The notes under the pieces: generated by a model
Seen by the model: only the letters and a program-made list of their open reading frames with translations
Databases searched by the model: none
What the model was told of the DNA's origin: nothing
Virus record (IMG/VR): IMGVR_UViG_3300044643_002008
Location: 1-64,000 of that record
Direction: 5' to 3' (one strand)
Length of the DNA stretch: 64,000 nucleotides
From: a virus
Made by a program: the position numbers and the translations under genes
Shown here: positions 2,270-8,062 of the stretch, in pieces
Layout of the letters: each line of letters starts with the position of its first letter
How positions within the stretch are numbered: position 1 is the first letter of the stretch

Positions 2270-2422
2270 TTACTTCGTCATAATCAGGGCTAGGACGTAC
2301 AAAGGCACTACGACTCCCCAGAACAGTACGACGAACCCTTGAATTGTCGGTCCTGTCTTCCCATGCCCAATCGGTCCTATCCACCAGGATTTGTCCGTGA
2401 TTTTCAGCCGGCGATTCTTCAT
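2270..2422 (-). CDS. Small membrane protein (50 aa)
   Basis: ATG overlaps the TGA of the upstream gene (ATGA); C-terminal hydrophobic helix FVVLFWGVVVPLYVLALIM. Confidence 0.55.
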   Translation of the reverse strand: MKNRRLKITDKSWWIGPIGHGKTGPTIQGFVVLFWGVVVPLYVLALIMTK

Positions 2423-2967
2423 GCTTTTCCTGTTCCTCCACACTGGTAGCAGACGTACCCTGTGTGCATCCATTTGTCGGCTTTCCCAGCTCCCCCACAG
2501 CGCCAGCAGATTCCGTTGCTTTTGTACTCCACGAGCTCTTTCTTGCGGTTCTTCTGTCCGATGCGCTTGCGAAGCTCAGTCTGGACATGGAGAGCCTCAT
2601 ACAAATCGAGCTCTGCCAGAGTCTTGTCTCCTGCAATCTTAGTGATAACTGCCTGGAGTGAGCGAACGTTTGCTTTCTTGCCCAAGGCTTCAAGCTCCCC
2701 CCCTTCAATCAGACTCTTAAGAAGGTTCTCCCTACGGATGTTCTCTTCCTCCATAGCTTTGGCTTCCATCTCCGCGATGATGCACTCGGCAGTTTTGGTT
2801 GGGCCGTCATGCATACTGTTCCATTCACGTGCACAGATGTACCCCAGAGACGCGTTTGGCCACCGGATGAGCTCTCCACACCATGTGGCACCAAAGTCGT
2901 AGATGCCTTCTCCCGCTGGAACGAACCCGTCGCAGCTCTTGCAATAACCCTTGTAGCGATTAATCAT
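2419..2967 (-). CDS. Zn-finger protein (DnaJ-type CxxCxGxG repeats)
   Basis: CKSC at the N-terminus; CWRCGGAG and CYQCGGTG at the C-terminus. Start set at ATG 2967, downstream of the promoter. Confidence 0.7.
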   Translation of the reverse strand: MINRYKGYCKSCDGFVPAGEGIYDFGATWCGELIRWPNASLGYICAREWNSMHDGPTKTAECIIAEMEAKAMEEENIRRENLLKSLIEGGELEALGKKANVRSLQAVITKIAGDKTLAELDLYEALHVQTELRKRIGQKNRKKELVEYKSNGICWRCGGAGKADKWMHTGYVCYQCGGTGKA

Positions 2968-2974
2968 GTCTGTG

Positions 2975-3003
2975 ATTATAAACAGAGCTTTAGGGAATTG
3001 CAA
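2975..3003 (-). promoter_or_regulatory. SigA-type promoter, leaderless
   Basis: TTGCAA-N17-TATAAT on the minus strand, 7 nt before ATG 2967. Confidence 0.75.
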
Positions 3004-3006
3004 ATC

Positions 3007-3687
3007 CTACGCGTTGTCGATTTGCTGAGCTATCCACTTCGCCACAGGGCTGACGACCCCATTCCCGCACATCTTGTAGCGCTGGGTATCCGAAACGACG
3101 CTTCCATTCACCCGTAAGAGGGTATGCCCCATTGGCCACCCCATAACCATTTCCACCTCTGAAGGGGTAAGTTTGCGGATTCGCCCCACCCCATTGGCGT
3201 CAACCTGGGTCACCAGGGGGACATTGTTGCCGCCTGTGCCCATTCGAGCTTTGAGGGTTGGGTAGATGTATTCGTACACCCGGACGTTGGAAACCCGTGT
3301 TCCATCCACGATATAGGGGTGAACAGACTCAATCCGGTGGATAGTTCCGTTCTCTACAGACTCAAGGATGTCCCTGACCACCTGGGGAATTGTGCTGGAG
3401 TGAGCGCGACGAAGTATCCCGGCTGCGGCTTTCTGCGAGAGGAAGTACTTCGATGGGACTGTATTCACGTCCTGGAGTGTAAAGACGGGCCACAACGAAG
3501 ACTCGTCGCCGGTGCTGGGGTACTCCGAAGTATTCCGCATTGAGGATTCCCCATTCAATGTGATTCGCCCCCAGTTTTGCCATTTCGGCCAAGACTGCCT
3601 CAAAGTCGTCACCGTCTCGACTGCTAAGTGCTCCGACGACGTTTTCCCAGATAACCCATTGGGGGTATTGATTTCCTGTTGCATCAC
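3007..3687 (-). CDS. C5-cytosine DNA methyltransferase, C-terminal subunit (EcoHK31I-beta-like segment, TRD, motifs IX-X)
   Basis: NTSEYPS...SSL...VPSKYFLSQKAAAGILRRA; RKLTPSEVEMVMGWP (IX); RYKMCGNGV (X). AAGGAG lies just upstream of the GTG/ATG at 3687/3684. Confidence 0.8.
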   Translation of the reverse strand: MMQQEINTPNGLSGKTSSEHLAVETVTTLRQSWPKWQNWGRITLNGESSMRNTSEYPSTGDESSLWPVFTLQDVNTVPSKYFLSQKAAAGILRRAHSSTIPQVVRDILESVENGTIHRIESVHPYIVDGTRVSNVRVYEYIYPTLKARMGTGGNNVPLVTQVDANGVGRIRKLTPSEVEMVMGWPMGHTLLRVNGSVVSDTQRYKMCGNGVVSPVAKWIAQQIDNA

Positions 3688-3994
3688 GCATCTCCTTGAT
3701 TACTCGTGTGGCTTCGAAGAACATTGATGAACGGTCCCCGCCGAAGCCTTTGCGGGTGCCGGCGAGTGAAAGGTCCTGGCATGGACTACCGAAAGAGATG
3801 GCGTCTACCGGGGTGAGCTCATCTCCCTTAACGTTTGTAACGTCCAGGTACTTAGGGATGTCGGGCCAGTTCTTCTGGAGGACGTCTTGACAGTCCTTAT
3901 CCCATTCAACCTGCCAGCGGCATTCCCATCCTGCTAGTTCTAGTCCTATGTCGAACCCTCCGGCTCCGGAGAATATGCTTCCAAACGTGGTCAT
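3362..3994 (-). CDS. C5-cytosine DNA methyltransferase, N-terminal catalytic subunit (motifs I-VIII)
   Basis: FSGAGG (I), GSPCQDLS (IV), WENV (VI), QHRRRVF (VIII). The ORF stops before motifs IX and X. Confidence 0.9.
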   Translation of the reverse strand: MTTFGSIFSGAGGFDIGLELAGWECRWQVEWDKDCQDVLQKNWPDIPKYLDVTNVKGDELTPVDAISFGSPCQDLSLAGTRKGFGGDRSSMFFEATRVIKEMRDATGNQYPQWVIWENVVGALSSRDGDDFEAVLAEMAKLGANHIEWGILNAEYFGVPQHRRRVFVVARLYTPGREYSPIEVLPLAESRSRDTSSRSLQHNSPGGQGHP

Positions 3995-4002
3995 AGTTAG
4001 GC

Positions 4003-4046
4003 ATCTTATATGTCCCCTTGCGCTAATGCAAGTGGCTCGCTACGAT
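4003..4046. promoter_or_regulatory. Overlapping divergent promoter pair
   Basis: Minus strand: TTGCAT(4031-4026)-N17-TAAGAT(4008-4003), 8 nt to ATG 3994. Plus strand: TTGCGC(4018)-N17-TACGAT(4041), 6 nt to ATG 4053. Confidence 0.7.
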
Positions 4047-4052
4047 AAAGAC

Positions 4053-4502
4053 ATGCTTACTGAACTATCTAACACTGATGCCCTAAAAATCTCTTGCGAC
4101 GCCTTGGCTCATGGAGTAAATATGAAATCCGCTATGGCTGGTGGGATTGCCCGCGAAATCGCCAAGATGTACCCTCGAGCCGAACAGTTGTACAACCTTT
4201 GTTGCAACGAAGAACGTGCCCGTCTTGGTGGAGTCTTCGCCTGCGACATCAACTCCGGTGAAGAAGAAGGTCCATACCGTCTCTACAATCTCTTTACCCA
4301 GATTGAGCCAGGTCGAGATGCTCGCATTACAGCTCTTGAGGTTTCAGTTAATCGTATGCACGATATGGCTGTTGGTGCAGGCGTAGAGACCATTGCTATG
4401 CCTCGCATTGGTTGCGGTATCGGTGGGCTTGATTGGGAAGATGTGAAGCCCATTCTGACTGCCGCTTCTGGCAATCTGAACTTCATCGTCTGTACTCTTT
4501 AG
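4053..4502 (+). CDS. Macrodomain protein (TARG1/Poa1p-like ADP-ribose processing fold)
   Basis: LAHGVN..SAMAGGIA, YNLFTQ, IAMPRIGCGIGGLDWEDV. Confidence 0.85.
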   Translation: MLTELSNTDALKISCDALAHGVNMKSAMAGGIAREIAKMYPRAEQLYNLCCNEERARLGGVFACDINSGEEEGPYRLYNLFTQIEPGRDARITALEVSVNRMHDMAVGAGVETIAMPRIGCGIGGLDWEDVKPILTAASGNLNFIVCTL

Positions 4503-4849
4503 CCTTCGCCCCACATCTGGGCGAGCGTAGGTCTCGTAGGTCCAACGCCTCTTCTCTTCTGTTCGGCAGCTAGTTGTCTACTTGTCAACCCTGCCCAAAC
4601 TCCATGCATATCGGCTGCCGGAAACTCAAGTGCGTACTCTAAACACTCTTTGCTGACGGTGCACTCAGAACAGATGCTTCTTGCTGTCTGAATGTAGCTA
4701 ATGTCCTTGTGGCCATTGGGAAACATGAGGTTTGTTTTCCCTCGGCAATTAGCGTTGGCCATCCATGCTGAAGTTTGTATAGCAAGACCTTTAAGAAGGT
4801 TGGGTTGTTTTCTTCCGGTTAAATTATTCCGGTTGTTTTGTTCTGACAT
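4499..4849 (-). CDS. whiB: WhiB family Fe-S transcription factor
   Basis: WMANANC...ICSECTVSKECLEYAL...HGVWAG (four Cys plus the G[VI]W[GA]G motif). Confidence 0.92.
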   Translation of the reverse strand: MSEQNNRNNLTGRKQPNLLKGLAIQTSAWMANANCRGKTNLMFPNGHKDISYIQTARSICSECTVSKECLEYALEFPAADMHGVWAGLTSRQLAAEQKRRGVGPTRPTLAQMWGEG

Positions 4850-5450
4850 GATTCTCCTGAACGTAGGTTTGAAATGGACTCCCAGTACCTGGGTCGAACT
4901 TAGCCGCCACCCCCAGCGCCTTTAACAACATTTGCTTAGCCTGAGATATTGACATCTTCTTGGCACCGGCGAGAACCTGCATTGCTCCTAGTGCGTATGT
5001 GCAACCGGTACCCAATGCGTACACCCCAGAGCTGTCGTTCATCCATGAGTAATCAGAATCGATGACATAGACGCAGCCATTCACTATGACCATTAGCTGA
5101 CTGTCTTGTTCGGCCTTGTTAGGACCGGACTTATCTACTAGGACATATCCCTGCTCTTCGAAACAAGCTCTTAGTGCTGGAATAAATTTAGTGGTTATGA
5201 AGGAGTCCAGACGCTTTCCTTTAAGGGATGGTGCTGGAGCTGGGGGCTGGAATGCGTGATGAAGTATGTTTATCGCTCTTAAATCTCCGGCGGCCCCAAT
5301 CAAGTACTTGCCATTAGCTGCAATCTTGCTAGTGCCACCGCCGAGGGTTGCGATTTGATACGCGCTTCCGTCTTCGTTCAGTAGTGAGATTCTTGAGTCT
5401 GTTCCGACGACGGCAAACCCGTCCCCTTGAATTGCAACGATTGTTGTCAC
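4824..5450 (-). CDS. Proteasome beta/HslV-like Ntn threonine protease
   Basis: Start GTG 5450 (GTGA overlap) gives N-terminal TTIVAI...GTDSRIS; also KI, GAAG and ALGTG..YALGA. Confidence 0.85.
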   Translation of the reverse strand: MTTIVAIQGDGFAVVGTDSRISLLNEDGSAYQIATLGGGTSKIAANGKYLIGAAGDLRAINILHHAFQPPAPAPSLKGKRLDSFITTKFIPALRACFEEQGYVLVDKSGPNKAEQDSQLMVIVNGCVYVIDSDYSWMNDSSGVYALGTGCTYALGAMQVLAGAKKMSISQAKQMLLKALGVAAKFDPGTGSPFQTYVQENHVRTKQPE

Positions 5451-5671
5451 TGTGTGTCCCACCTGTCCGTTACGAAGCTGCGAACGACTTCTGTTATTCG
5501 GCGTTTGAAGAATGGGTCGACAATAGAGCCACGCATTTCTTCTGCAATATCAGGACGGATATCAAAGAGAAGGTTGAAGTAGACCTGTCCTATGCGCCAG
5601 TCTCCAGGGCTTGTCTTTTCATACTGGTCGAACTGTTCGTTGACGAGTTTTTCGAATTCCAGATATGTCAT
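5447..5671 (-). CDS. Hypothetical protein
   Basis: ORF coupled to the protease gene; WRIGQVYFNLL...DPF pattern. Confidence 0.7.
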   Translation of the reverse strand: MTYLEFEKLVNEQFDQYEKTSPGDWRIGQVYFNLLFDIRPDIAEEMRGSIVDPFFKRRITEVVRSFVTDRWDTQ

Positions 5672-7526: not shown

Positions 7527-7609
7527 ATGACTCCCGACCAGTACGGTTCCACTGTTGTTCAGTGGTTTCCTGCAGTATACTCTAAGTCTTTTTGCTAGAG
7601 TCAAACATT

Positions 7610-8062
7610 ATGGGCACAAAAGATAGTAAAACTCGCGAGCACGTTCTTCGTCAGCCTTTGAGCGAGATGATAAAGACCGCGATGGCCGCAGGAGCAAACA
7701 ACGATGAACTCCTCGAGGGAATCATGCGCACTCTTGACCAGCAGAAAATGATTTCATATTGTTCGAAAGACGAGATATCAATACTTAGCCCTGCGGGTCG
7801 TGTGCTTGTGGCAATCATGGAAGACAGCTCGATAACACAAAGGGCGCTAGCTGTATATCTTGGAGTAACTGAATCAAATATTCAGAAGTCAATTAAGACT
7901 CTTATTGATGCAGGCCTTGTAACAAAGCAGAAAGAAAAAGGTCGCAACATCTACCGAGTCAACAAGGACCGGGCGTACAAGCATCCAGATGTTTCACGAT
8001 TCTATGACGGAATACATCAAATGTCTGTTTTGGCTTCTTCTGACGATGAGTCGCCATTCTGA
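7610..8062 (+). CDS. Winged-HTH (MarR-like) regulator
   Basis: ITQRALAVYLGVTESNIQKSIKTLIDAGLV..GRNIY. Confidence 0.8.
   Translation: MGTKDSKTREHVLRQPLSEMIKTAMAAGANNDELLEGIMRTLDQQKMISYCSKDEISILSPAGRVLVAIMEDSSITQRALAVYLGVTESNIQKSIKTLIDAGLVTKQKEKGRNIYRVNKDRAYKHPDVSRFYDGIHQMSVLASSDDESPF

Follow-up and report, generated by a model that had tools for sequence, protein, structure and literature searches.

Two-chain DNA (cytosine-5) methyltransferases, hereafter C5 methyltransferases, are regarded as rare curiosities. Two cases have been characterised (PMC3404938). M.AquI, the two-subunit C5 enzyme of Agmenellum quadruplicatum (CYCGRG), is split between motifs VIII and IX, with the cut lying inside the variable region, part of which is retained by the alpha chain (PMC3404938). 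In the alpha/beta enzyme represented by M.EcoHK31I and M.EaeI (YGGCCR), beta is encoded in another reading frame, wholly inside the gene for alpha; the beta chain of M.EcoHK31I holds motif IX only, and alpha keeps motifs I-VIII, the target-recognition domain (TRD), and motif X (PMC2836561, PMC3404938). Full-text searches of the literature turned up no description of an overlapping gene that is widespread among C5 methyltransferases. A two-subunit methyltransferase of a Stx phage was also considered; it belongs to the MT-A70 family and is unrelated to the C5 enzyme that is the subject of this report (PMC10810198).

The locus described here lies in a window of 64,000 nucleotides (the whole stretch of DNA that was analysed) from an IMG/VR viral contig of 77 kb, which is about half complete, originates from lake-water metagenomes, and contains this locus as its sole match to the Pfam family DNA_methylase (PF00145). 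Two ORFs share the locus, namely ORF A (alpha) and ORF B (beta), with the frame of ORF B being +1 relative to that of ORF A (Table 1). ORF B starts within ORF A and ends 355 nt past its stop. Regarding their content, the PF00145 profile is matched over positions 2-161 by ORF A (E 5e-47) and over positions 221-322 by ORF B (E 5.5e-7). The motifs were also read directly from the sequence: those of ORF A include motifs IV, VI, and VIII, whose columns are invariant in a 60-sequence alignment, and ORF B carries the variable region followed by motifs IX and X, with the motif IX-X region aligning to residues 269-319 of M.HhaI. These results bear out the original prediction, made from the sequence alone, that ORF A has motifs I-VIII only, and that ORF B begins inside it in a shifted frame behind an AAGGAG, shares a dual-coding region of 326 nt with it, and carries the variable (TRD-like) region together with motifs IX and X. 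A megablast of the locus against a phage collection gave no match.

Table 1. Features of the methyltransferase locus and of the genes around it, in window coordinates
Feature	Position	Strand	Description
ORF A (alpha)	3994..3362	minus	210 aa; C5 cytosine methyltransferase large catalytic domain, motifs I-VIII
ORF B (beta)	3687..3007	minus	226 aa from GTG 3687; 225 aa from ATG 3684
ORF A/ORF B overlap	3362-3687		326 nt
Motif I, FSGAGGF	3953-3973	minus	AdoMet binding, FxGxG; ORF A residues 8-14, direct sequence reading
Motif IV, SPCQDLS	3767-3787	minus	PCQ, catalytic Cys; ORF A, direct sequence reading
Motif VI, ENV	3638-3646	minus	ORF A, direct sequence reading
Motif VIII, QHRRRVF	3497-3517	minus	QxRxR; ORF A, direct sequence reading
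Motif IX, RKLTPSEVEMVMGWP	3133-3177	minus	ORF B; aligns to motif IX of solved C5 methyltransferases
Motif X, RYKMCGNGVVSPV	3043-3081	minus	ORF B; includes RYKMCGNG
AAGGAG	3692-3697	minus	Shine-Dalgarno-like, for ORF B; inside ORF A (Lys-Glu codons); 7 nt before ATG 3682-3684
ORF A tail after motif VIII	3365..3478	minus	Residues 173-210; open in frame A, not selected in frame A
ORF B residues 1-62	3499..3684	minus	Over ORF A motifs VI-VIII; dual-coded, predicted disordered
ORF B residues 63-112	3349..3498	minus	First folded part of beta; KYFLS..GILRRA motif
HicB-like antitoxin-type domain	1583-1927	plus	Early region
194-aa protein	2419-3003	minus	Directly downstream of ORF B
Macro-domain protein	3948-4502	plus	Divergent from the methyltransferase
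WhiB-family regulator	4499-4849	minus	Adjoins the 212-aa protein
212-aa protein	4824-5462	minus	Weak proteasome/Ntn-hydrolase N-terminal match
MarR/winged-helix regulator	7592-8062	plus	Early region

At the level of the ORFs, the locus is like M.AquI in that motifs I-VIII are on one chain and motifs IX-X on a second, but the cut comes immediately behind motif VIII, with the entire variable region in beta. The cut is placed there, and not inside the variable region, because frame-A selection and the fold of ORF A both end after motif VIII and the alignment of ORF B starts from M.HhaI residue 183, as detailed below. In the window, moreover, the beginning of beta lies within alpha, in the +1 frame and 65 codons before the cut, from which the 326-nt overlap results. 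The likeness to M.EcoHK31I is that the second polypeptide comes from an alternative frame of the alpha gene; however, the beta of the window extends the full 355 nt beyond the alpha stop and holds the TRD, IX, and X, with alpha being left with I-VIII only. Judged from its sequence, the locus combines the split of M.AquI with the alternate frame of M.EcoHK31I, as the original prediction proposed, yet it has the defining layout of neither.

The split locus is not an assembly error and not a recent pseudogene. Contigs from four different studies, all of lake metagenomes, cover the junction with no letters inserted or missing; a relative that is 99% identical and comes from another sample (L003) has the same two frames, and a further relative, in which alpha is 76% identical (L084), has both ORFs in the same arrangement. 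Proteins of ORF B length cover 100% of ORF B at 92, 91, 65, 62, and 51% identity, and the two-frame layout is kept in the nearest relatives (L003, L084, P0001-4, and P0007) down to the last of these values, with the start Met of ORF B being conserved among relatives. In the variant X7, all of the substitutions in the B-only part (7/7) are at frame-B third positions. A second protein search, limited to residues 1-112 of ORF B, added almost nothing. The gene contains no homopolymer as long as 6 letters, nor does the junction have one of 5; phase variation was considered and rejected on this ground.

The frame that is under selection at each place can be told from the frame-A codon positions (1/2/3) at which the window and L084 differ. 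Within the clade of the window, such codon tests rest on L003 and L084, the two DNA relatives with the exact layout. Before the overlap (3994-3689), the three positions differ at 0.196/0.118/0.706, which is the pattern of ordinary frame-A selection. In the overlap up to motif VIII, the values are 0.279/0.087/0.435, and after motif VIII they become 0.487/0.205/0.179, which is a frame-B signature because position 1 of frame A is position 3 of frame B. In the B-only part, the third positions of frame B vary most (0.661 vs 0.274 and 0.248). Frame A is the selected frame until shortly past motif VIII, at about nt 3478, where frame B takes over, and both halves are under purifying selection. The same inversion is seen in 36 more distant relatives that form one clade, where the frame-A pattern resumes past the end of the +1 ORF.

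Synonymous sites add to this picture. Where frame-A residues are identical between the sequences, the codon is identical as well for 21 of 70 residues before the overlap and for 31 of 48 within it (p 3e-4), and in the 36-sequence clade the corresponding fraction is 0.57 before, 0.80 within, and 0.56 after the overlap. Frame-A synonymous variation is reduced over the stretch that encodes residues 1-62 of ORF B, which is the outcome of a check that the original prediction had proposed for the overlap; the constraint on this overlapped N-terminus of beta could have another cause, that part being predicted disordered. Of the second-frame strings that made both frames look meaningful in the original prediction, 'SKYFLSQKAAAGILRRA' lies downstream of motif VIII, where frame B is selected, but NTSEYPS gives no independent coding sign because it is only motif VIII read in the +1 frame.

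Predicted structures place the hand-over at the same point. The AF2 model of ORF A (60-sequence alignment; pLDDT 84, pTM 0.80) is folded to about residue 180, and its tail has pLDDT values of 34-62, with residues 188-210 below 50 and the lowest values at 34-36. In the AF2 model of ORF B (87-sequence alignment), residues 1-62 have pLDDT values of 30-39 and residues 70-225 are folded. Residues 63-112, which are the counterpart of the segment that comes just after motif VIII in monomeric enzymes, reach 83-95 and include helices at 84-96 and 101-112; for residues 70-135 the means of 10-residue blocks are 77-95, and the remainder of the model is mostly confident. Residues 58-225 of this model align with residues 183-321 of M.HhaI (Z 5.1, rmsd 3.9, 121 residues), and the model also aligns to other C5 enzymes over their post-motif-VIII halves. 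The structural Z values are modest, yet every top match to the ORF B model is a C5 methyltransferase, and a Foldseek search against the PDB returned weak matches only, again all C5 methyltransferases. In these models, the structured part of A (3994 to ~3479) and the structured part of B (~3498 to 3010) abut, because the fold of ORF A ends where that of ORF B begins, as judged from AF2 and from the alignment to M.HhaI, and either half of the overlap pairs a frame predicted to be structured with one predicted to be disordered. The locus is in this respect a clean case for long same-strand overlaps, with structured versus disordered pairing and a sharp hand-over.

The arrangement belongs to a much wider family. 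Related loci were fished with ORF B and, because the KYFLS peptide of ORF B could bias the outcome, separately with the N-terminal domain of ORF A alone in viral contigs and bacterial genomes; loci of related phages are not independent observations. Nearly all of the ~240 distinct related loci, the set found with ORF A only included, have a +1 ORF across motif VIII, and in these loci the +1 frame is open for 45-237 codons upstream and for 24-166 or more codons downstream of motif VIII, with the +2 frame open for only a few to ~40 codons. The exception is a small Sulfurovum-type clade (L314-L316 and L318, from Sulfurovum and related MAGs; 36-37% identity), which is the only related C5 clade without a +1 ORF across motif VIII and would serve well as a naturally occurring negative control when the nested gene is studied. 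When synonymous codons were shuffled, the +1 frames averaged 61-70 codons vs the 110-130 observed, with p <0.05 in 93 of 132 loci; the window alone is borderline (p 0.051), because the amino-acid make-up of the domain already gives long +1 frames.

The +1 product has a conserved first Met, after which many lineages have (I/F)Q.SLFGKTS, and it extends to SLS.ILE..VP.KY.LS.KAC.GILRRA..RGK.LP..L..AL. The window aligns with 55 members of this nested +1 ORF family, and residues 11-86 of ORF B match phrog_16143 (E 4e-7), PHROG 16143 being the same family. The start signal recurs too: among 75 loci with the start type of the window, AAGGAG followed after 7 nt by ATG is found in 35, and a further 15 have GGAG. 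A profile of the nested protein retrieves 6116 representative clusters at E 1e-3 or better, and many of these are proteins of 225-480 aa with the domain at the N-terminus, which is the type found in the window. In databases, such proteins nearly always go by the name "hypothetical protein", no NCBIfam family covers the nested protein, and a comparison by sequence of the profile with solved structures found none. The notion that KY.LS.KAC.GIL could be motif IX in disguise was unsupported, with hhalign of the profile against the motif IX-X region finding nothing; the profile likewise bears no resemblance to the motif IX region. The only link of beta to the beta chains of M.EcoHK31I and M.EaeI is a tentative one, an Atlas feature match of 0.87, below the counting level, to a cluster auto-named "EaeI methyltransferase beta subunit family protein".

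Unannotated +1 ORFs lie inside methyltransferases of other elements, such as the P1-like dmt (L324), a Brucella plasmid methyltransferase (L325), and mycobacteriophage Dallas (L001). These full-length enzymes have the same N-terminal domain family as the window, and their nested ORF, as in the window, has the conserved +1 start and crosses motif VIII into KY.LS.KA..GILRRA..RGK.LP, a segment that is selected in frame B. They differ from the window in that the +1 ORF ends ~50 codons past motif VIII and frame A carries the TRD, IX, and X, whereas in the window it is frame A that ends early and the remainder of the enzyme is read from the +1 ORF. On the E. coli P1-like plasmid NZ_AP018804, dmt codes for 763 aa, annotated as a Dam-family methyltransferase, with the C5 domain at the N-terminus, and its unannotated +1 ORF (163 codons, 2216-2707) ends in KAC.GILRRAEKR.K.LP. 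A tblastn search with a nested-type protein gave matches in 448 Escherichia plasmids, and those listed as Dam-family (dmt) are P1-like plasmids of ~90-100 kb. In Mycobacterium phage Dallas (MN062701), the methyltransferase is in three pieces (1655-2789): an unannotated +1 ORF of 159 codons (1842-2321) lies inside gene 118, and gene 119, which is 66 aa as annotated and in the +1 frame, is open from 2418 and has motifs IX-X. A three-part layout as in Dallas is also found in L005, L026, L036, L062, and L085.

When 213 distinct N-terminal domains were sorted by layout, 184 belonged to a full-length frame-A enzyme with a short nested +1 ORF and 12 to the type of the window, in which a stop closes frame A shortly past motif VIII and the +1 ORF extends through IX-X; another 12 were otherwise split, or cut by contig ends, and 5 had no +1 ORF. 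The window, L003, and L084 form a fully supported clade that is nested among clades of the nested-ORF type, and the fused type corresponds to 4 to 8 changes on the tree, with the C-terminal half carried by the +1 frame in the lineage of the window and in at least three others. It is therefore most likely that the reading frame changed at a point past the nested gene, and that the C-terminal half of the enzyme thereby came to be read in the nested frame. The original prediction had seen here a hybrid arrangement, with a beta-like frame taking over the C-terminal half, in preference to a pseudogene, and both parts are supported: the clade of the window, with its fused beta, lies among clades whose nested +1 ORF is short, and relatives down to 51% identity keep ORF B with both halves under purifying selection. 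A hidden indel, which it had named as a way to be wrong, is absent across the four independent assemblies, and the homologs are not uniformly single ORFs, the nearest being two-frame and the distant ones a full-length enzyme with a nested +1 ORF.

A bolder reading extends to the whole family. An old overprinted and mostly unannotated +1 gene may reside in thousands of phage, plasmid, and bacterial C5 genes, P1 dmt included, so that most of the enzymes taken for "monomeric orphans" would need a second chain, and the C-terminal half would have switched frames repeatedly, the tree needing at least 4 changes. We hold this view tentatively, as falling somewhat short of an even chance. If it is true, the family is a natural experiment in re-partitioning a protein between overlapping frames.

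The layout, its conservation, the selection acting on each frame, and the predicted folds come directly from the analyses above. On this basis of sequence and modelling, we consider it likely that the two ORFs code for the two polypeptides of a single DNA (cytosine-5) methyltransferase, with beta produced from its own start inside alpha. Alpha would be composed of the AdoMet-binding, catalytic large domain (motifs I-VIII) and of a disordered, unselected tail. Beta would be translated separately, from its own AAGGAG-ATG inside alpha and one base out of step with it; residues 1 to ~62 would form a disordered arm encoded over motifs VI-VIII of alpha, and the rest of the chain would supply all that follows motif VIII in a monomeric enzyme, from the beginning of the small domain through the target-recognition region to motifs IX and X. 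The two chains would then assemble, as those of M.AquI and M.EcoHK31I do, into an enzyme that is presumably active. The disordered arm perhaps aids the association of alpha with beta, and it is paralleled by the N-terminal association stretch of 41-50 residues in the beta chain of M.EcoHK31I. As for its origin, the wider family has an enzyme of full length in whose gene a short +1 gene (~115-160 aa) is nested, and in the lineage of the window a frame change past the nested gene would have put the C-terminal half of the enzyme in the frame of that gene.

The geometry of the two ORFs, taken alone, is also compatible with a single chain, in which a programmed +1 ribosomal frameshift after motif VIII (~nt 3478-3500) would lead from ORF A into ORF B, with the upstream part of ORF B left untranslated. 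The fold of ORF A ends (~172-180) where that of ORF B starts (~63-70), A and B cover residues ~1-180 and 183-321 of M.HhaI without gap or duplication, and one +1 shift at the junction would give a seamless monomer of ~330 aa; in the window, the junction even reads CTT-T, which we take to resemble the prfB slip codon. We nonetheless consider a frameshift unlikely. Comparison of two sequences of the clade reveals that the slip-like codon is not kept, CTT-TAC in the window being CTT-CAA in L084, and that no stop or other conserved stimulator accompanies the junction. The frame-A stop is at variable distances among relatives, and a frameshift leaves unexplained the conserved Shine-Dalgarno-ATG 65 codons upstream, the open +1 frame, and the reduced synonymous variation. 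Moreover, in most relatives the +1 ORF ends ~50 codons past motif VIII and the enzyme goes on in frame A, so that a shift would truncate the enzyme instead of completing it. Two subunits could also be made with a later beta start (e.g., at ORF B residues 49-70), in which case the upstream overlap would be an untranslated relic with little dual coding. Such a start is in keeping with the predicted disorder of ORF B residues 1-62, with the ATG found at codon 49 of ORF B in the window, and with the gene call of P0005, which begins right at the KYFLS segment; however, the internal Met is absent from L084 and P0003, the upstream Met and its Shine-Dalgarno sequence are conserved, and it is precisely over residues 1-62 that synonymous sites in frame A show constraint. 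An arm of this kind can matter, as the N-terminal 41-50 residues of M.EcoHK31I beta are required for association with alpha (PMC2836561), and a later start appears improbable beside the AAGGAG-ATG preferred here.

Split C5 genes are frequently annotated as pseudogenes, and the existence of single-ORF relatives (P0017, P0047, and P0051) would suit a decaying gene in which a frameshift mutation inactivated a monomeric methyltransferase. This is very unlikely for the present locus, whose catalytic motifs are all intact and whose two halves are under strong purifying selection between split-sharing lineages that are only 51-76% identical; besides, the fused layout occurs at at least 4 places on the tree and in many database proteins. 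As the window is part of a metagenome-assembled viral contig, an assembly or sequencing error, or a phase-variable slippage at a homopolymer, might be suspected as well, but the indel-free contigs of the four studies, the same frames in the 99% relative from the other sample, and the homopolymer counts given above make either of them extremely improbable.

With two subunits as the preferred reading, the locus would represent a third layout of the two-chain C5 methyltransferase, one kept under selection and placed in a very large family that maintains a second frame over the catalytic domain. Annotation pipelines will call such loci pseudogenes or overlook one of the proteins, and where the second frame is not taken into account, the prediction of phage methylomes and the heterologous expression of a single methyltransferase gene may fail.

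Some properties of the genes around the locus (Table 1) are worth recording. The 194-aa protein has no Pfam match, and it contains CxxC pairs, including two C-terminal CxxCGG(A/T)GK repeats, that give it the look of a DnaJ-type zinc finger; no more than a few bases separate its start from the stop of ORF B, with which it may be co-translated. On the other side, the macro-domain gene (Pfam PF01661, E 1.5e-8) shares its first 47 nt with the 5' end of ORF A, which is on the other strand. The WhiB gene and that for the 212-aa protein overlap by 26 nt, and the presence of the former hints at an actinobacterial host. The early region also encodes the HicB-like domain (E 9e-5) and the MarR/winged-helix regulator (E 2e-8).
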